DNA of 27,939 nt from a virus (taxonomy: Duplodnaviria > Caudoviricetes). Location: IMG/VR virus record IMGVR_UViG_3300045918_000020, positions 1-27,939 of that record; one strand, written 5' to 3'. The notes beneath the pieces are model-generated. The model was not told the origin of the DNA. It saw only the letters and a program-made list of their open reading frames with translations, and did not search any database. The translations under genes were made by a program, and so were the position numbers. Numbering within the stretch: the first letter of the stretch is position 1; each line of letters opens with the position of its first letter. Positions 2,348 through 27,468 of this stretch are shown here, piece by piece.

Positions 2348-2424
2348 GCACATTAAAAGAATTGAAAGAGTCAAAACAGTCTGATGAGACAAGGTATAAA
2401 GAACAACCGCACTACAAATAACGA

Positions 2425-2452
2425 TTGACTTTGTTTGATTGCGTGCTATAAT
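2425..2452 (+). promoter_or_regulatory. Sigma70-like early promoter
   Basis: TTGACT-16 nt-TATAAT with TGn extended -10. Confidence 0.75.
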
Positions 2453-2472
2453 AACAACATCAACCAAACTAC

Positions 2473-2745
2473 ATGGAGTATGTGATGAGTTTATGTGAAG
2501 ATGTCATGCGATCAGGTATACAGCTACTTCATGAATTAGAAGAGCTTCGAGAAGATAATATAAAACTTAAACGACTGGCTATTGATGCAAATAATTCTGT
2601 TGCAAGTTTATTGGAGGAAATATCGGAATATAAAGATAAGTTTGCTTGCATACTTACACAAAATCAGCTTAATCTTGAGTATGATCTAGAGGCAGCTAAA
2701 CGAGAACTACATACTCAACGCGTGGAAAGGCGAACTGGAGATTAA
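2473..2745 (+). CDS. Hypothetical coiled-coil protein
   Basis: 90-aa ORF behind the promoter; heptad-like L/E/K content; true start may be a few codons downstream (after GGAG). Confidence 0.65.
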   Translation: MEYVMSLCEDVMRSGIQLLHELEELREDNIKLKRLAIDANNSVASLLEEISEYKDKFACILTQNQLNLEYDLEAAKRELHTQRVERRTGD

Positions 2746-2747
2746 AA

Positions 2748-3020
2748 ATGAAGATGACAGTTAACCAAGTATTTAAACTTACTGAAAAAATCAGTATTGG
2801 AATACCAGGATGTGGCTGGAGCACAGGGTTATATAGAGTAACCAGTATTGGTCCTTCGTTTGGGACTTGCAAATCTGACAGAGAAGATACACGAGCGCAG
2901 ACATATTTTGTGCAACGTATTAAGAAAGATGGAACACCATACGGAAAAATGCAAGGGTACAATGTTCAGGCGTTTGATCGTAATTACCTTGATACAAAGA
3001 AAGCAATTATCATTGAATAA
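2748..3020 (+). CDS. Hypothetical protein
   Basis: 90-aa ORF with GGAG SD. Confidence 0.7.
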   Translation: MKMTVNQVFKLTEKISIGIPGCGWSTGLYRVTSIGPSFGTCKSDREDTRAQTYFVQRIKKDGTPYGKMQGYNVQAFDRNYLDTKKAIIIE

Positions 3021-3073
3021 TTCTTGACACAATTAAACTCTAATAAATAGATAATACAACAAAGGAATTTAAC

Positions 3074-3115
3074 ATGTTTAATTATTGGCAACCGAATGAA
3101 GGATGGGAACAGTAA
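3074..3115 (+). CDS. Putative 13-aa leader peptide MFNYWQPNEGWEQ
   Basis: AAGGA SD 3062-3066, ATG 3074, TAA 3113-3115, directly followed by alternative hairpins. Confidence 0.55.
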   Translation: MFNYWQPNEGWEQ

Positions 3116-3143
3116 AGGGGCGTAAGTAGTTTTCATTTTTATG

Positions 3144-3177
3144 AAGCCCTTAATTAAATTTTAGGGTTTTTATTTTT
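3144..3177 (+). terminator. Intrinsic terminator with competing antiterminator
   Basis: AAGCCCT 3144-3150 / AGGGTTT 3163-3169 followed by TTATTTTT. Confidence 0.7.
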
Positions 3178-3181
3178 GTGC

Positions 3182-3210
3182 TTGACAAATATATTAACAT
3201 ATCATAAAAT
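3182..3210 (+). promoter_or_regulatory. Sigma70-like promoter
   Basis: TTGACA-17 nt-TAAAAT. Confidence 0.75.
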
Positions 3211-3238
3211 GGGCGTATTGAGTCAATGAAAGATACAT

Positions 3239-3502
3239 ATGAAAACAACAGTAGATTACATATTTAATAAGTTTGATCCATGTCATGCTTGTCCTATTGA
3301 AAATGACATATCAGATGAATATACGGAAGAAGTGGAAATTTTCTGTTCGTATGTTAACAAAGGACTATCTGTTAAGTATGCACTATCATGTGTAATGACT
3401 AATATGTTAGGTAAAGGTTGGAGACATACCAAAAGGTGCAATGTTATCCAACTAGAAAAGGAATTGTATGGTACAGTTGAGAGAATTAAAAGAATCTCTT
3501 GA
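3239..3502 (+). CDS. Hypothetical protein
   Basis: 87-aa ORF downstream of the promoter. Confidence 0.6.
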   Translation: MKTTVDYIFNKFDPCHACPIENDISDEYTEEVEIFCSYVNKGLSVKYALSCVMTNMLGKGWRHTKRCNVIQLEKELYGTVERIKRIS

Positions 3503-3860
3503 AGATAGTGAAGTGTCTAAACTATCTGTCTTACAATCTCAATATAAGACAACTGGTTGGACTATCAAGACTAAGGTACATGCTAGAGCAAGGGCATATA
3601 CTAGACATCCGACTCATACAGCAGAAGATTGGATAAAGTTTCACAGAAATATTGTCCACGCAGTAATAAAAAGCAGAACAAGTGGAAATCATGTAATATT
3701 TTCAAAATCGCATAATATCGGTGTTGTTGCAAATGTAGATCGTAAGAATAAAATGATTGAATATCATACAGTTCTGTCGAGTGGAAAACACCATGCTGAT
3801 GCTGATGCTAATGATACTAAATTGATGGTTGAGTATAAAATAGTTTCATTTTGTGATTGA
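3468..3860 (+). CDS. Hypothetical protein, possible virion-internal protein
   Basis: 130 aa; AAGGA SD; N-terminal LRELKES; His/Lys-rich. Confidence 0.65.
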   Translation: MVQLRELKESLEDSEVSKLSVLQSQYKTTGWTIKTKVHARARAYTRHPTHTAEDWIKFHRNIVHAVIKSRTSGNHVIFSKSHNIGVVANVDRKNKMIEYHTVLSSGKHHADADANDTKLMVEYKIVSFCD

Positions 3861-3884
3861 CAAAGATTTAAAAGAGAGTAGAAT
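3857..3884 (+). promoter_or_regulatory. Sigma70-like promoter for tRNA-Gly/Thr
   Basis: TTGACA-16 nt-TAGAAT. Confidence 0.7.
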
Positions 3885-3922
3885 AGATTCTGTTGATTGA
3901 AAGCATGTCCGACCAGTTTTAT

Positions 3923-3998
3923 GCGGGATTAACTCAGTTGGTAGAGTCACAGTTTTCCAAACTGTTGGTCAGGAGTTCGAGTCTCCTATCCCGCTCCA
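3923..3998 (+). tRNA. trnG: tRNA-Gly(TCC)
   Basis: GCGGGAT/ATCCCGC acceptor stem, ACAGT-TTTCCAA-ACTGT anticodon arm, TTCGAG T-loop, encoded CCA. Confidence 0.95.
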
Positions 3999-4004
3999 TT
4001 TTAT

Positions 4005-4079
4005 GCTATGTAAGCATTGTTAGCGATGCGCTGCTGTTGTAAAGCAGAGAACTGGCCGCAAATTCCAGCCGTAGCTCCA
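4005..4079 (+). tRNA. trnT: Atypical or degenerate tRNA-Thr(TGT)
   Basis: GCTATG/CGTAGC acceptor, CTGCT-GTTGTAA-AGCAG anticodon arm, encoded CCA; non-canonical T-arm (CTGGC-CGCAAAT-TCCAG). Confidence 0.7.
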
Positions 4080-4082
4080 AGT

Positions 4083-4218
4083 TTTGTATCATGGCAACGT
4101 CCCATTCGTAAGTGTTCTAGACGCGAGAAGATAAGAATGATTAAAGCACAGATGGACTCAGTGCGCCAAGGGTGATATGAGTAGAATTCGTCAACGCTGT
4201 CATATCACCTGATACAAA
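4083..4218 (+). ncRNA. Candidate structured ncRNA, ~136 nt
   Basis: Closing stem TTTGTATCA/TGATACAAA, 10-bp stem GGTGATATGA/TCATATCACC, nested short stems; no ORF. Confidence 0.65.
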
Positions 4219-4233
4219 TTAAACATAGATAAC

Positions 4234-4262
4234 TTGCATAAAGTATTTCGTGTTGTTATAAT
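4234..4262 (+). promoter_or_regulatory. Sigma70-like promoter for tRNA-Arg
   Basis: TTGCAT-17 nt-TATAAT with TGn. Confidence 0.75.
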
Positions 4263-4282
4263 GATCTTATCGAACATAACAT

Positions 4283-4358
4283 GTCCCTATAGCTCAGTAG
4301 ATAGAGCAGCATCCTTCTAAGATGCGGGTCGGGAGTGCAATCCTCTCTAGGGACACCA
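4283..4358 (+). tRNA. trnR: tRNA-Arg(TCT)
   Basis: GTCCCTA/TAGGGAC acceptor, GCATC-CTTCTAA-GATGC anticodon arm, TGCAATC T-loop variant, CCA. Confidence 0.93.
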
Positions 4359-4377
4359 GTATTTAAGGAGAAATGAA

Positions 4378-4488
4378 ATGCGGAATATGATTCAAGTTCA
4401 TTGTTGGAATAGAAAATCTGGTTCACATGGCAAGTCTAAGAAGGCTATGCGTAGAGCAGATAAGATGTCATTGAAGTGTGAATACTAG
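4378..4488 (+). CDS. 36-aa basic protein
   Basis: MRNMIQVHCWNRKSGSHGKSKKAMRRADKMSLKCEY; AAGGAG SD; fills the tRNA-Arg/tRNA-Phe spacer. Confidence 0.6.
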   Translation: MRNMIQVHCWNRKSGSHGKSKKAMRRADKMSLKCEY

Positions 4489-4562
4489 CCAATATATCTG
4501 AGATGGATTAGCAACGGACTGAAAATTCGTGGAGGTTGGTTCGATACCAACTGTTGGCACCA
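4488..4562 (+). tRNA. trnF: tRNA-Phe(GAA)
   Basis: GCCAATA/TGTTGGC acceptor, ACGGA-CTGAAAA-TTCGT anticodon arm, GTTGG-TTCGATA-CCAAC T-arm, CCA; weak D-stem. Confidence 0.88.
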
Positions 4563-4583
4563 AATTAAAAGTGAGGAAAAATT

Positions 4584-4940
4584 ATGAAAGATACAACAAG
4601 GCAAGAACTCAATCTGGCAGTGAAGATTGCAACAGATCAGTTATCAGCAGCGCAGAAAGCACTAGCTACATTCAAGTCGATGGCAGAGAATAACGTGTTT
4701 GACACAATTGAAATTGCACTTTGTACGATTAAGGATAAGCTCCTATCCGAAGCTAGTAACGACTGTGAAGGATCATATTCCTGTGAAGGATCATATTCCT
4801 GTGGACCAGAAAATTATACACAGGAATTTATTGTTGACGGAGTACGCTACATAGGAACACTAGAATGTGAATATGATCGACACTACAAAACATATTACTA
4901 TATTGATTGTCATAAGTTTACACACTCGGTGGTTGCATAA
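4584..4940 (+). CDS. Hypothetical protein
   Basis: 118-aa ORF with GAGG SD; internal CEGSYS duplication. Confidence 0.75.
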   Translation: MKDTTRQELNLAVKIATDQLSAAQKALATFKSMAENNVFDTIEIALCTIKDKLLSEASNDCEGSYSCEGSYSCGPENYTQEFIVDGVRYIGTLECEYDRHYKTYYYIDCHKFTHSVVA

Positions 4941-5284
4941 TGACATACTGGATGTATCAGATTGACAATCGTTTTAAAGGTGATTCTGGTGGAATGTCTG
5001 ATGCATTTCCAGTAGATGAAAACGATAAGATGGGTGAGTGTGAACATAATACTAGGCCTAGAGTCGGTGTTATGATGGTAGTCGGAGCAATTTATGCTAG
5101 ATCATATTGTAGTCAAGATTGGTGGAGAACTAATGTAATTAAGAGTATTCTGATAGATGAACCAAACTATGTTAAGTTTGAAACGTTGAGCGGATCAGTT
5201 TATGAATGGAAGTGTGACCAATCAGATATTGAAGATTCTAAACATGCGACAGATAATTTAGCGAATGCAATTGACAAAGAATAA
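4940..5284 (+). CDS. Hypothetical protein
   Basis: 114-aa ORF coupled by TAATG; ..QDWWRT..I..I......VKFET..GSVYEW pattern seen in phage hypotheticals. Confidence 0.75.
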   Translation: MTYWMYQIDNRFKGDSGGMSDAFPVDENDKMGECEHNTRPRVGVMMVVGAIYARSYCSQDWWRTNVIKSILIDEPNYVKFETLSGSVYEWKCDQSDIEDSKHATDNLANAIDKE

Positions 5285-5304
5285 GTATTAGTTAATATGA
5301 ATTA

Positions 5305-5625
5305 TAGGTTCTCTCCTATTATCCAGAGAATTAAATTAAACAGGTATTATGGTGTTTAAGCTATATAAGAACCACGTCAACTAATCATTGACTAGTTACC
5401 GGATTTAATCATATCCGAAACGATTGAAGTGGAGTGATATCCATATACAAAAAGGTTATATGTGGTACGCAATTACCATGAATGATTGATAGATTAGATG
5501 TGCAGAAGTAGACTGATGTCGATGATATCTGTATTGCTAATTTTGAAGTAAGCACATTCTTGCTAGGTCGGATATGTCGTGAGGCTATCTCTCTTATGAG
5601 GTTAGTATGTGCAGTTGCAAGAATT
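5305..5625 (+). ncRNA. Candidate structured ncRNA(s) upstream of tRNA-Trp
   Basis: About 320 nt with no convincing ORF, tiled with hairpins, behind TTGACA-16 nt-TAATAT (5271-5298). Confidence 0.45.
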
Positions 5626-5628
5626 AAT

Positions 5629-5702
5629 AGATTACTGGCGTAATGGTAGCGTAAGTGGTTCCAACCCACTTGGTTGAGGTTCGATTCCTTAGTGATCTGC
5701 CA
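5629..5702 (+). tRNA. trnW: tRNA-Trp(CCA)
   Basis: AGATTAC/GTGATCT acceptor, AGTGG-TTCCAAC-CCACT anticodon arm, TTCGATT T-loop, G73 discriminator and CCA. Confidence 0.9.
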
Positions 5703-5722
5703 TATTAAATAAAGGATTAAAC

Positions 5723-5854
5723 ATGAAAGCCAAAATGCTTATTGCAAAGTTAAACTTTGCTTGTCTTACCGGTGATAAAAAAGCAGAAAAAGATATTTGG
5801 TGGAAGCTATTACTTAAATCTTTAAAACACAAAAAGACGTTTCCAGTATCATGA
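5723..5854 (+). CDS. 43-aa hypothetical protein
   Basis: MKAKMLIAKLNFACLTGDKKAEKDIWWKLLLKSLKHKKTFPVS; AAGGGA SD. Confidence 0.6.
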   Translation: MKAKMLIAKLNFACLTGDKKAEKDIWWKLLLKSLKHKKTFPVS

Positions 5855-5863
5855 AATAATTTT

Positions 5864-5938
5864 GGATCTGTAGCTTAATGGTAAAGCAGGGTACTCATAA
5901 TGCCTCAAGTATAGGTTCAATTCCTATCAGACCCACCA
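5864..5938 (+). tRNA. tRNA(CAT): elongator Met or Ile2
   Basis: GGATCTG/CAGACCC acceptor (A3.C70 mismatch), GGGTA-CTCATAA-TGCCT anticodon arm, TTCAATT T-loop, CCA; G1-C72 paired, so not an initiator. Confidence 0.9.
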
Positions 5939-5945
5939 GTTAATA

Positions 5946-6036
5946 CTCTGACACACTAACAACCTTTTCAGGTCAAATGGTGCAAAAGATAGCCTGAATT
6001 AACAGGTGCGATATGATGACGATTATATCTACGGAG
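5946..6036 (+). ncRNA. Candidate small structured RNA, ~90 nt
   Basis: CTCTG/CGGAG closing stem with TTCAGG/CCTGAA and GATATGA/TTATATC internal hairpins. Confidence 0.4.
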
Positions 6037-6039
6037 ATT

Positions 6040-6047
6040 TATAAATA
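6040..6047 (+). promoter_or_regulatory. T4-type late promoter
   Basis: Exact TATAAATA 28 nt upstream of ATG 6076. Confidence 0.75.
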
Positions 6048-8837: not shown

Positions 8838-8881
8838 CAAGTAATCATAATACTGTATAATCCACACATTCGCTGAACAAA
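8834..8881 (+). promoter_or_regulatory. Early promoter cassette, copy 2
   Basis: TTGACA-16 nt-TATAAT followed by CCACACATTCGCTGAACAAA. Confidence 0.85.
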
Positions 8882-8899
8882 TACTTTTAGGATATAAAC

Positions 8900-9034
8900 A
8901 TGGACAGATATAATAAGTTTGATGAATGGTGGACTGCTGAACCAGTGAGCGAATTTGAAGGGGTTGACTCTGGGCATGTAGAGCGAGCATTTGCAGCAGG
9001 ACGTGAAGCGGAGCGCGAAAGTGTGGTTATGTAA
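8900..9034 (+). CDS. 44-aa hypothetical protein
   Basis: MDRYNKFDEWWTAE...AFAAGREAERESVVM; AGGA SD. Confidence 0.6.
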   Translation: MDRYNKFDEWWTAEPVSEFEGVDSGHVERAFAAGREAERESVVM

Positions 9035-11399: not shown

Positions 11400-11968
11400 T
11401 AACATCATACAAATTTTACCAGATTTATATGAGGTATCGGCTGCATTTCAGAACAACATTTAATATTTTAGGTCATTATGATGCTCCCAAGACTATAAAT
11501 AAAAATAACTACGAGAAAAGAGAAGATAGAGAAATATTTTCTACATGGAATTTTAAGTCTGTAAACGAATGCCAAAAATTTTGTATCTTCAATTTTGTAA
11601 AGTCTGAAAACTGGCTGTATAATAAACAATCTGATGCTTGGGATGTATATTACGAAAAGATGAAGTATTTTTCAACATTTAAAGAAAATATTAATAAAGA
11701 TTATGAGACAATCAAATTACTGCTGCGAACCAAAAACATATCATTCAATGAAATTACAAAACAAACTAAAAGTGGAGGGAGACCTCCAATTTTACAACTT
11801 CTTTTTCAAGATCATATTAGCATTGAGTTTGTTTGCATTGTCAATAATAAGTTTACTTTTGCTGATAAATGGAACACTATTGATCCTCTAATAGTTGATG
11901 CTGCATTTTTAATTAAAAAATATTCTCCACTCATAAACATTATCAGACATGGACAAAAAGTTGCATAA
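11396..11968 (+). CDS. gp59: Helicase loader gp59
   Basis: Y..Y....LHF...., PPILQL.FQ..ISIE, IKKY.P motifs; position between genes 33 and 32. Confidence 0.82.
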   Translation: MITSYKFYQIYMRYRLHFRTTFNILGHYDAPKTINKNNYEKREDREIFSTWNFKSVNECQKFCIFNFVKSENWLYNKQSDAWDVYYEKMKYFSTFKENINKDYETIKLLLRTKNISFNEITKQTKSGGRPPILQLLFQDHISIEFVCIVNNKFTFADKWNTIDPLIVDAAFLIKKYSPLINIIRHGQKVA

Positions 11969-23584: not shown

Positions 23585-23947
23585 TAGATTAAATTTAATT
23601 TTAACATCTGTTTCACAAAGAACACATAGAACGATCTGAGGTAGAGGAGACTTACCTTATCAAATGTTCCACTAGAGTTGGTGACATCACTGATAGTTCA
23701 CGTATCAAAGAAAAGATCCGGCAATGTCTGATAGTATAACCGGGATATCTTCATTTTGGCTTGAATCGGAATGATGATTAGACGCATGTATTACATCGTA
23801 ATTGGGAGTCAGGATGCACCCAATCCTCTTAGATGGGAGGTTGAATATTCAAGACTACTGACGAATGCTAGGTTCGTGCGTGAGATAGTTAGATGCTGGT
23901 TGTCTAACTACGTTCAAAATAACTCTTCATGTGTGAGGGTTAATCTA
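23585..23947 (+). ncRNA. Candidate large structured ncRNA, ~360 nt
   Basis: About 12 stems, many with G.U pairs on the + strand, within a 550-nt intergenic gap. Confidence 0.6.
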
Positions 23948-24048
23948 ATATAATCAATATAATATCTCCTAAAAAAATATACGGATGAATATAATATGTA
24001 ATCGCACTGGCGAATAAATAATCTTAATTAACCTTAATACTAAATAAT

Positions 24049-24729
24049 ATGCTAACATTTAAACAATACTTAAATGAGTGTGTGAACAATACATTTGAAT
24101 CTTCATTAGGTAATCATTCTCTACCAGATAATAATCTGATTCAATCAGACATAAGAGAATCAAATACTCCTGATACATTAAATGATAAGTTAAATAATGA
24201 ATCATCTAACTTTGATAAAGATGATGTAGTACAGATAAAGAAGTATACAACAGATAGTAAAGGACTTAATTCATTTAAACATAAAAGAGCATCTGGCATA
24301 ATAGGTAAAGATCAGAAGCATCCTGAAGAAGATAAGATGAATAAACTTATATCAAAGAATAAATTAAAAGATGATGTAACAGTTTATACTGGACTAAAAG
24401 AATCTCCTAGAAAGAAGATTAAGTCTAATAAAGGAATATTAGAACATCCAGCTTATATGTCGGTATCTACATCTAAGGGAGTAGCTCAAGGATTTGCTCA
24501 TGGAGATGAGTCGGTTGCTCAATCTAATCCAACATACGGTTATAGTCATATTGCTAAGGTAATAATTCCAGCAGGTACATCATACGCCCACATAAGTGGA
24601 CATTCAGTTAGACCAGAAGAAAACGAAGGAGTATTAAAACCTGCTAGATATCACTTTAATGACAAACATGAGATAGATCATGCTAATCAAATGGTGACAT
24701 GGGAAGCAGAACATAGAGGTGAGATTTAA
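24049..24729 (+). CDS. ADP-ribosyltransferase (VIP2/Alt-like) with capsid-targeting N-terminus
   Basis: YT..S..LN, VYTG, YMSVS, A..FA, ENEGVL; MLTFKQYLNE; late boxes AATAAATA 24013 and ACTAAATA 24039. Confidence 0.8.
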   Translation: MLTFKQYLNECVNNTFESSLGNHSLPDNNLIQSDIRESNTPDTLNDKLNNESSNFDKDDVVQIKKYTTDSKGLNSFKHKRASGIIGKDQKHPEEDKMNKLISKNKLKDDVTVYTGLKESPRKKIKSNKGILEHPAYMSVSTSKGVAQGFAHGDESVAQSNPTYGYSHIAKVIIPAGTSYAHISGHSVRPEENEGVLKPARYHFNDKHEIDHANQMVTWEAEHRGEI

Positions 24730-25562
24730 TCATCTTTATGCTGTCCCATATAAGTTACATGATGTTCAATTACTCCATCTTTGTCATTATGAATTGAATG
24801 AGTATATTTAAATAAAGAATTTCTAGGATGAATGAATTCTCTTTCTGTTGGAGTAGATGAAAGATTTCCTTTTTGAAATTCATTATCATCTTCTAAGTGA
24901 TCTGATTTACCATCAACATATCCTCCTGGAGATCCTTTAGGGTGATGTATAACTATCATATGTCTAGCAGATGTATAGTTAGAATCTTTATCCATACCAG
25001 CAAAACTTTTTGCTTTTACTCTTGATAAAGATGAAGATGTAAAATTAGTTGCTCTAAATGTTTCTCCTTTCTTTATATGACGACTTAAATCCTTTCTTAT
25101 GCCAGAGTATAAGGCGAAGTCTTTTTTTGTTCTATGTTTGTTCAAAGCAGAATCTAGTGGAGCAGTCTCATCATTTATTCTGTTAACAGTTCTTTCATCT
25201 GGAGTATAAGAACGATCAATTCCATATCTTGCATGATGACTGTTTATTGCATATGATGAAGTAGTATAATTTCTAATTGCCATCTCTTCGCCTTTACTAT
25301 ACTTGTACTGTTTAGACAGCTTTTCATGTTCTTTTTGAATTTGGTCGTATGTTAATTCTTCTTTCAATTCCTTTGGCTTTTCTGAATGTTTGCCAAATAT
25401 AATGTCATTGAATATCTTTTCTTTTGGCTTTTCTGAATGTTTGCCAAATATAATGTCATTGAATATCTTTTCTTTTGGCTTTTCTGAATGTTTGCCATAT
25501 ACGACATCGTTAAATATTGGCATCTTATAAACTATCTTTTTTAATTGCTTTAATGTTGACAT
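24726..25562 (-). CDS. ADP-ribosyltransferase (VIP2/Alt-like) with N-terminal repeats
   Basis: YT.SSY.IN, LDSAL, LYSG, FTSSS, A.SFA, EREFI.PR. Confidence 0.82.
   Translation of the reverse strand: MSTLKQLKKIVYKMPIFNDVVYGKHSEKPKEKIFNDIIFGKHSEKPKEKIFNDIIFGKHSEKPKELKEELTYDQIQKEHEKLSKQYKYSKGEEMAIRNYTTSSYAINSHHARYGIDRSYTPDERTVNRINDETAPLDSALNKHRTKKDFALYSGIRKDLSRHIKKGETFRATNFTSSSLSRVKAKSFAGMDKDSNYTSARHMIVIHHPKGSPGGYVDGKSDHLEDDNEFQKGNLSSTPTEREFIHPRNSLFKYTHSIHNDKDGVIEHHVTYMGQHKDD
25372..25517 (-). repeat. 51-bp coding repeat, about 3 copies
   Basis: Encodes IFND[VVY/IIF]GKHSEKPKE[K/L]. Confidence 0.95.
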
Positions 25563-26097: not shown

Positions 26098-26140
26098 AAG
26101 TAGTCTTTAATAACTATAATGAGTATTAAAGACTACTTTT
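26098..26140 (+). terminator. Intrinsic terminator
   Basis: Perfect 15-bp stem AAGTAGTCTTTAATA/TATTAAAGACTACTT ending in a T-run. Confidence 0.7.
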
Positions 26141-26158
26141 TAATATCTTAAATAAATG

Positions 26159-26204
26159 TTGACATCCTATTTTGTTCATGTATAATACACATTATCTGAA
26201 CAAA
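26159..26204 (+). promoter_or_regulatory. Early promoter cassette, copy 3
   Basis: TTGACA-16 nt-TATAAT followed by ACACATTATCTGAACAAA and AAGGAG. Confidence 0.85.
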
Positions 26205-26408: not shown

Positions 26409-26947
26409 AAGTAATTTATCTTCATGGCCTAGGTTCATCTCCTAATACCAAAAAGGTTCAACTTCTAAAAGATGTTGGATTTAATGTAGTGTCGCCAATA
26501 ATTGATATTGATCCAGAAATAGCTGAACCATATCTTATCGACTTCATCTTTAATGAATTAGGTAAAGATGAAGAACGTGTCTGCCTATGTGGAACTTCTT
26601 TAGGTGGTTATTGGGTCGCTAGGATGCAAGAATTCTTTAGTATAAATGGACTTCTTATCAATCCAGCTTTATATCCACAAGAATCATTAAAAAGATTTAA
26701 CGGCTCATATAAAGATTATGCTACTGGTCAAATGAAAGATTTAACAAATGTGATTGATAAGTATTTGCCTATATCAGAAGATAATACAGCATGGCAAACA
26801 TTTTTTATCGCTGTCAATGATACTCCTATTCCAAAATTTGCTACTCAGATAAAACTTTATGATTCTGATGATCATCAAGGACTTTCATTCTTCGATGATG
26901 TCATTAAAAAGATTCGTTATTTAGATGCCCAATTTGAACCTGTATGA
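26405..26947 (+). CDS. YqiA/UPF0227-like alpha/beta-hydrolase (esterase)
   Basis: YLHG..SS, nucleophile elbow GTSLGG, LINPA, C-terminal Asp and His candidates. Confidence 0.88.
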   Translation: MKVIYLHGLGSSPNTKKVQLLKDVGFNVVSPIIDIDPEIAEPYLIDFIFNELGKDEERVCLCGTSLGGYWVARMQEFFSINGLLINPALYPQESLKRFNGSYKDYATGQMKDLTNVIDKYLPISEDNTAWQTFFIAVNDTPIPKFATQIKLYDSDDHQGLSFFDDVIKKIRYLDAQFEPV

Positions 26948-27468
26948 CCACGTAATTCTTTTGTGTGCATAGTCCCACCTATTATTCGATCATAAGTGTT
27001 ATCAGGATTAGATGTAGATTCTTTTCCTGTTAATTCCTTCACCTTAGTATTAGATATCTTAGGTGCATTAACCTTATCTGATAATCTAGCCATTCCATGT
27101 GATACCTCTCCCCATGCCCTCTTAAATTTTACATCCTCTTCAGCAGTCTTAGTTAATTGTCTTTTACCTTCATCAGATCCATCCGTAGCAGCAGCTATTG
27201 ATTTTCTTCCGTGTGACTTTTTGTAAATTCTAACAGCTACAGGAACTCCTTTAGATTTATTCAATTTTATGATGTGATTTGGATCTCTTATGTCTTTTGA
27301 TATCTCTTTATATTCCTCATCTGTATCATGTCCTAATCCACCATATCCTCCAATATTTTTATACGATGACTTTATCATTGCATGAATTGCATCATGATAT
27401 GGCTCTTTCTCTGATAACTTGTCTGTAGTTAAATAATGCTCTAATAAATATTGTTTAAAAGTTTTCAT
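26917..27468 (-). CDS. Capsid-targeted internal virion protein (hypothetical)
   Basis: MKTFKQYLLE N-terminus; GGGAG SD; - strand late box CATAAATA at 27494-27487. Confidence 0.75.
   Translation of the reverse strand: MKTFKQYLLEHYLTTDKLSEKEPYHDAIHAMIKSSYKNIGGYGGLGHDTDEEYKEISKDIRDPNHIIKLNKSKGVPVAVRIYKKSHGRKSIAAATDGSDEGKRQLTKTAEEDVKFKRAWGEVSHGMARLSDKVNAPKISNTKVKELTGKESTSNPDNTYDRIIGGTMHTKELRGHTGSNWASK

Follow-up and report, generated by a model that had tools for sequence, protein, structure and literature searches.

A candidate minimal translation-coupled attenuator between a late promoter and the tRNA genes of an uncultured T4-like phage

The E. coli leaders thrL, trpL, hisL, pheL and leuL carry a short ORF led by a Shine–Dalgarno (SD) sequence and followed by competing antiterminator and terminator helices; the leader stop codon lies 43–93 nt before the U-tract, and the terminators have energies of −14 to −28.5 kcal/mol. 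In the whiB7/wblC systems of Actinobacteria, as outlined in PMC10274678, efficient translation of an upstream ORF leads to termination and inefficient translation to an antiterminator, and the response is to broad translation stress, including the loss of tRNAs and synthetases. T4-like phages carry PeSL cassettes, described in PMC2839356 and PMC4122927 as a stem-loop with a stem of the A3-4G3/C3T3-4 type, a U-tract and a TTGACA promoter in a variable region, repeated within a genome. Full-text literature searches, evaluated by titles and abstract openings, turned up no published description of phage tRNA genes controlled by a leader-peptide attenuator.

Here we analyze a candidate for such an attenuator in a 27.9-kb stretch of DNA, called the window in this report, which is part of the genome of an uncultured phage whose sequence occurs in wetland and pond metagenomes, with no RNA run among those listed. 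One of the DNA runs contains the element unchanged and is possibly its source, and in the other two no contig spans 3042–3167, which is neutral for the claim. The window has a G+C content of 33.7% and was assigned to a T4-like phage by the PHROG matches of gp59, gp32 and its baseplate and head-closure genes; its gp32 is ~40% identical to those of the best-matching cultured phages. The contig starts with a long array of 9-residue repeats (1–530), and a long ORF-poor stretch at 23600–23960, after a small gene behind gp5, folds like shuffled sequence (z 0.0). Several ORFs in a group located at 24049–24729 (+), 24726–25562 (−), 26917–27468 (−) and about 6426 have start residues resembling a capsid-targeting motif; late motifs directly precede three of this group, and two match Alt-like ADP-ribosyltransferase families.

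A sequence-only reading had proposed that a promoter, an SD, a 13-codon ORF, two mutually exclusive helices and a U-tract together form a ribosome-sensing attenuator, and all of these motifs were found in place on the + strand. The T4-type late promoter motif AATAAATA is located at 3042–3049, with a transcription start predicted near 3055 by the −13 to −6 rule of PMC1524935, where it is also described that the first T of the motif is often replaced by A in T4 relatives. Nine of the 13 other NATAAATA sites in the window precede, by 26–49 nt, the ATG that opens an ORF of at least 62 codons, gp48 and gp4 being among these ORFs, which include structural genes; the corresponding distance from the motif at 3042 to the leader ATG is 32 nt. 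In its placement, NATAAATA behaves as the late promoter of this phage. Upstream, a lone TTGACA −35 box (3024–3029) has no good −10 box at 16–18 nt and is absent from the promoter list. The SD, AAAGGA (3061–3066), lies 7 nt before the ATG of the predicted 13-codon leader ORF (3074–3115), encoding MFNYWQPNEGWEQ.

The 12 internal codons of the leader draw only on Phe, Asn, Tyr, Trp, Gln, Pro, Glu and Gly. The residues K, I, L, S, D, T, V and A are all missing, an absence seen in none of 6909 12-mers from the window's proteins, for a residue set that was picked post hoc. Two of the 12 codons encode Trp (p 0.007), but these, Trp5 and Trp11, are six codons apart and thus not in tandem. The earlier description of the leader as using many different amino acids did not hold up, as nine types in 13 codons is average (the probability of at least nine is 0.80). 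The leader encodes Trp, Phe and Gly, and tRNAs for all three are found downstream; however, the proposed match of 5 of 13 codons to the window's tRNAs wrongly counted the start ATG by way of a CAU tRNA (5864) that lacks initiator features, leaving a weak match of 4/12 codons (p about 0.05, 0.05–0.06). Five of the eight internal amino-acid types have no tRNA in the window, most of the genome being missing, and the window's tRNA-Arg and Thr-like tRNA have no matching codon in the leader.

The antiterminator 5′ arm, AGGGGC (3116–3121), is directly behind the leader stop and can pair with GCCCTT (3146–3151). Between these arms, a weak inner hairpin of TTCAT (3132–3136) and ATGAA (3141–3145) has an energy of −2.3 kcal/mol alone, and an alternative inner pairing is equally good. 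The antiterminator 3′ arm and the terminator 5′ arm are one and the same sequence, AAGCCCTT (3144–3151). In the terminator, AAGCCCT (3144–3150) pairs with AGGGTTT (3163–3169), with three G–C pairs and two extra A–U pairs; the 3′ arm and U-tract occupy 3160–3177, with 10 T in 3167–3177. The calculated energies were −9.6 kcal/mol for the antiterminator as drawn and −9.0 kcal/mol for the terminator. The terminator hairpin folds better than shuffled sequences (z −2.5), the whole 3055–3177 RNA no better than shuffles (z −0.5), and the hairpin at 3144–3177 was not reported by a strict terminator scan of the window. At equilibrium, folding of 3110–3180 gave p 0.88 for the terminator core and 0.08 for the antiterminator. 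The sequence GGGCGTA occurs twice, at 3118–3124 in the antiterminator arm and at 3211–3217, right behind the −10 box of the promoter at 3182, and these are the only copies of GGGCG on the + strand of the window.

Right behind the terminator is a sigma70-type promoter, TTGACA-17-TAAAAT (3182–3210), followed by an 87-aa ORF without a family (3239–3502), a 130-aa ORF (3468–3860, phrog_17629; ORF 3468 below) and a second sigma70-type promoter (3857–3884), directly before the first tRNA, tRNA-Gly(UCC) (3923–3998), about 750 nt behind the terminator. ARAGORN predicted five tRNAs in 3923–5938, the others being tRNA-Arg(UCU) (4283–4358), tRNA-Phe(GAA) (4488–4562), tRNA-Trp(CCA) (5629–5702) and a tRNA with a CAU anticodon (5864–5938). 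The last has a G1:C72 pair, which rules against an initiator tRNA, and would be either an elongator Met or a lysidine Ile tRNA. By inspection, we found an additional tRNA-like cloverleaf (4005–4079) with a CCA end, a would-be UGU (Thr) anticodon and an odd T arm, which was missed by ARAGORN and Rfam and has a fold z of 0.28. All of these are on the same strand as the element, with no terminator predicted in between. Indeed, no further hairpin resembling a terminator, at −8 or lower, came up in our scan of the + strand before 26100, and a strict-scan hairpin at 5744 sits within a 43-codon ORF. Sigma70-type promoters at 3182, 3857 and 5271, and a possible fourth at 4234–4262 identified by eye, can bypass the terminator. 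The tRNA cluster also contains a 136-nt structured stretch with a terminal stem (4083–4218; −38.1 kcal/mol, z −2.7) with no Rfam match, reminiscent of the stable RNAs, species I and II, that the T4 tRNA cluster encodes. A four-hairpin stretch (5940–6030, z −3.0) lies behind the last tRNA, just before a late motif at 6040.

Folding at equilibrium fails to tell true attenuators from controls, and the switch is invisible by this approach in four of the five E. coli attenuators; in the window, the terminator wins at equilibrium at every ribosome position (0.72–1.0). A prefix-folding proxy was used instead, asking for each ribosome position whether the terminator 5′ arm is already paired upstream before the 3′ arm is made, with the E. 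coli thr, trp, his, phe and leu leaders as controls. The proxy reproduced the known E. coli pattern, with sequestration of 0.71–1.0 at the sensing codons, 0.03–0.39 at the stop and 0.06–0.53 without a ribosome. In the window, sequestration was 0.96–1.0 with the ribosome at codons 2–12, 0.49–0.52 at codon 13 and the stop, and 0.20–0.33 there if the ribosome footprint was made 2–5 nt longer. As modelled, switching is confined to the last two codons and is incomplete. Without a ribosome, sequestration was 0.98, compared to the 0.06–0.53 of the controls; together with the lack of a protector helix, this predicts that an untranslated leader reads through.

A competing helix of this kind is uncommon, but not rare. 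Among random 31-mers from the window, 88/2000 sequestered the terminator arm equally (p ≥ 0.9), and 15/2000 did so as stably. Of 193 terminator-like hairpins in related phage loci, 12 had an equal competing helix, as stable in four cases. Composition-keeping shuffles of the same 31 nt sequestered the arm often, 315 and 501 times per 1000 in two sets (57 and 69 per 1000 as stably). The frequent sequestration by these G-rich shuffles shows that the signal is the G-run rather than the fine sequence.

Like the E. coli leaders, the window thus has a short SD-led ORF and competing antiterminator and terminator helices, the latter computed only in the window, and its leader stop, 54 nt before the U-tract, falls within the E. 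coli range. Unlike them, it has no run of sensing codons, no protector (1:2) helix, a terminator of only −9 kcal/mol and predicted read-through without translation; its target is a tRNA block and its promoter a phage late motif. The trp/his-type geometry suggested earlier therefore applies to the spacing, but not to the tandem sensing codons, the protector helix or the behavior of an untranslated leader, and the element falls outside the trp/his family. In our model it works most like a translation-speed attenuator of the whiB7 type, where, from the account in PMC10274678, lack of translation would likewise give read-through. The whiB7/wblC systems differ in being bacterial and in controlling a transcription factor, and a sequence relation to the window is not expected. 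Similarity to the PeSL cassettes lies in the stem-loop and U-tract (3144–3177) directly before the sigma70 promoter (3182–3210) in a variable region; however, the PeSL descriptions in PMC2839356 and PMC4122927 mention no leader ORF or antiterminator, both of which are found in the window. No second copy of the element is present in the 27.9-kb window, and the one other hairpin–TTGACA pair (26100–26164) is unrelated in sequence.

Similarly arranged elements were found before other phage tRNA arrays. Our comparison set consists of eight phage loci, of which L122 and L140 came from a scan and L098, L004 and L037 were chosen by eye among 25 stretches. The remaining loci came from two patterns derived from the arms of the window's own element. 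A search with the pattern AGGGGC...AAGCCCT...AGGGTTTT matched 31 viral loci, two of which, L173 and L182, have a leader (32 or 41 codons) and a tRNA array behind it; a related pattern matched 22 loci, two of which, L205 and its duplicate L214, carry a leader and a tRNA array. In all eight loci, a promoter, a leader ORF, an antiterminator arm at the leader end and a terminator are followed by tRNAs. The antiterminator arm is a G-run in all but L004, and in L037 the G-run is at the stop itself, as in the window, with a gapless alignment over this part. The eight loci also share with the window the CCC/GGG terminator, the lack of a protector helix, often a TTGAC promoter behind the terminator (TTGACA in L140, L098 and L205) and the spacing: from the leader stop to the terminator 5′ arm, 27 nt in the window compared to 21–29 nt, and to the U-tract, 54 nt compared to 49–57 nt. 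The base that follows the G-run varies together with its pairing partner, the pair being C–G in the window, L140, L173 and L182, U–A in L098 and L205, and U–A within GGGUC/GACCC in L037 and L122, a co-change that was read by eye in loci that need not be homologous.

The window differs from the eight loci in its much weaker helices and short leader. Its 13-codon leader is the shortest of the nine (the others have 29–43 codons) and uses nine amino-acid types compared to 13–20, mostly 17–20; the leaders of L140, L122 and L098 contain all 20. Likewise, its terminator is the weakest of the nine, at −9.0 kcal/mol compared to −14.2 to −17.7 kcal/mol. The devices at all eight loci (L140 at 11495–11665, L122 at 8863–9030, L098 at 1965–2155, L173, L182, L205, L037 and L004) are stronger than the window's copy. 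In the folding proxy, three of the eight also remain at 0.43–0.65 at the stop. The window's tRNAs lie 750 nt off behind two ORFs, for which the only precedent among the eight is L182, which has two ORFs and about 970 nt before its first tRNA and has kept its full leader. The two ORFs and two sigma70 promoters raised earlier as a caveat are indeed present, but with L182 as precedent for the ORFs and L140, L098 and L205 for the promoters, they become features of the kind and a weaker objection.

Some candidates were rejected in the course of this comparison. L123 was removed because its stop is 5 nt before the hairpin and it has no antiterminator and no nearby tRNA; the feature, at about 1630–1757 (−), has a late motif, a double SD, a 29-codon Cys/His-rich ORF and a strong terminator, and is possibly a late microprotein gene. 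Reading the window's leader as part of a longer decayed gene, with the stop taken as X (27 residues), gave one match with an E value of about 10, in a frame that would enter the terminator. The −1 frame ends K-G-R-K-stop at 3129, resembling several comparison-locus leaders, but a frameshift relic was set aside because this stop is only 13 nt before the terminator, outside the 21–29 nt range, whereas the real stop is at 27 nt.

Two background sets were used to gauge how specific the arrangement is. The first consisted of 160 loci picked by an unrelated protein (ORF 626 alignment). A mini-ORF ending 16–34 nt before a terminator was found for 4/14 tRNA-proximal terminators compared to 2/394 others, and a mini-ORF with a switch for 2/14 compared to 0/394 (Fisher p 0.001). 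The window passes this leader-plus-switch filter, whose thresholds were fixed after the window values were known, and the strict filter caught two of the five devices present in the 160 loci. The second set comprised 98 distinct hairpin-plus-TTGACA cassettes from 120 loci, sampled out of about 1300 stretches with this layout; eight were discarded for short upstream DNA or a weak hairpin, and the 90 usable cassettes included three with a mini-ORF and none with a switch. As only one cassette had a tRNA behind it, this set tests background only. Together, the eight similarly arranged loci and the two background sets lend support to the proposed ribosome-position switch and its link to tRNA genes.

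Searches for homologs of the window's own copy gave little. Degenerate patterns of the leader peptide had no matches in viral, metagenome or genome contigs, apart from two loci that we consider chance, out of frame within a restriction-modification gene in an unrelated virus. When 2400–4400 and 3020–3240 were compared with cultured phages by blastn, the only matches were to tRNAs or to short AT-rich stretches, and Rfam has no family for the element. Locus searches with single proteins did not uncover a close relative. ORF 626 has relatives of at most 57% identity, none of the 160 loci fetched with it shares the genes around the element, and ORF 3468 matched only itself in a large protein set. 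In these collections the sequence of the element has no relative, in contrast to its layout, and its case draws no support from conservation or covariation.

The best place for the element is among the leader switches before phage tRNA arrays, as a minimal variant, and we lean, by a modest degree, toward its being a working minimal translation-coupled transcription attenuator that gates late read-through. In the proposed mechanism, a ribosome at codon 13 or the stop would cover AGGGGC; otherwise this arm would pair with GCCCTT before the terminator 3′ arm has been transcribed. A ribosome reaching the leader stop in time would then cause transcription to stop near 3177, and slow or absent leader translation would allow read-through toward the two ORFs and the tRNA genes. 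What is sensed would be the speed of translation over the 12 codons, not any one amino acid. Early on, the tRNAs would presumably be transcribed from sigma70 promoters of their own; the switch would top up the tRNA block late in infection, with host-type promoters fading, if decoding is slow.

The element might instead be the eroding relic of a former full leader attenuator that stood directly before a tRNA array. Its leader would have shortened, its terminator weakened and two ORFs moved in behind, leaving late transcripts to read through for the most part regardless of the ribosome. This would fit the short leader, the weak helices, the late and incomplete switch and the bypass promoters almost as well. 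A leader and a terminator that rank last of the nine, a U–U mismatch (3151/3162) breaking what would be a 10-bp stem, just 5–6 scattered tRNAs and the lone −35 box at 3024, which resembles the degraded cassettes described in PMC4122927, all point in this direction. However, an intact late motif, SD, start, stop spacing and G-run remain, U3151 extends the antiterminator, so that tuning fits as well as decay, and L182 retains a full leader in spite of its two ORFs. We consider decay unlikely.

Slightly less probable again is that the hairpin belongs to an ordinary PeSL-like terminator-plus-early-promoter cassette ending a late micro-gene or small RNA, with the competing helix arising by chance. 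A hairpin, U-tract and TTGACA box in a variable region is the layout published in PMC2839356 and PMC4122927 and is common, occurring in about 1300 stretches of the sequence collection; 2–6% of terminators have such a competing helix, and a very large scan is bound to meet rare layouts. The terminator also wins at equilibrium at all ribosome positions, but equilibrium folding hides the switch in most true E. coli attenuators as well. The leader peptide is without a homolog, and a leader with a switch was absent from all 90 cassettes and all 394 other terminators, which argues against a chance arrangement.

It is improbable that the switch is real but has ORF 3468, a probable capsid-packaged protein needing late expression, as its main target rather than the tRNAs. 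Relatives of ORF 3468 in Aeh1, phage 65 and VmeM-32 sit behind late motifs, and the N-termini of the protein and its relatives resemble the T4 capsid-targeting sequence. The capsid-targeting concept is described in PMC3012670, and CTAAATA as the Aeh1 late motif in PMC1524935. Since the window has no NATAAATA site upstream of ORF 3468 other than that at 3042, read-through may serve this gene too. Nevertheless, the common downstream element in 8/8 comparison loci is the tRNA array, and the function of the protein is only putative, as is the targeting motif; ESM Atlas returned only unnamed clusters and weak sub-threshold leads for ORF 3468. A Trp-specific attenuator of the trpL type, as the two Trp codons and the downstream tRNA-Trp might suggest, is highly improbable, given that these codons are so far apart, that a stall at any of codons 2–12 has the same predicted outcome and that there is no protector helix.

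It has long been asked why phages carry tRNAs, and one current view, presented in PMC10264068, holds that phage tRNAs take the place of host tRNAs that defense nucleases have destroyed. In the window, the translation-coupled attenuator that we favor is smaller and weaker than every other example; it matters as the lower limit of the design and less as proof; the eight comparison loci are better candidates for bench work. More broadly, and tentatively, since we rate it at somewhat under an even chance, T4-like and other large phages may audit translation with a leader ORF and a terminator, making replacement tRNAs late only when decoding slows, for example after attack by a tRNA-cleaving defense, with the window as a minimal working form whose 12 codons are tuned to a chosen tRNA subset. 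If true, such a slow-ribosome feedback switch on tRNA transcription would make the nuclease-replacement view testable with a 125-nt reporter.
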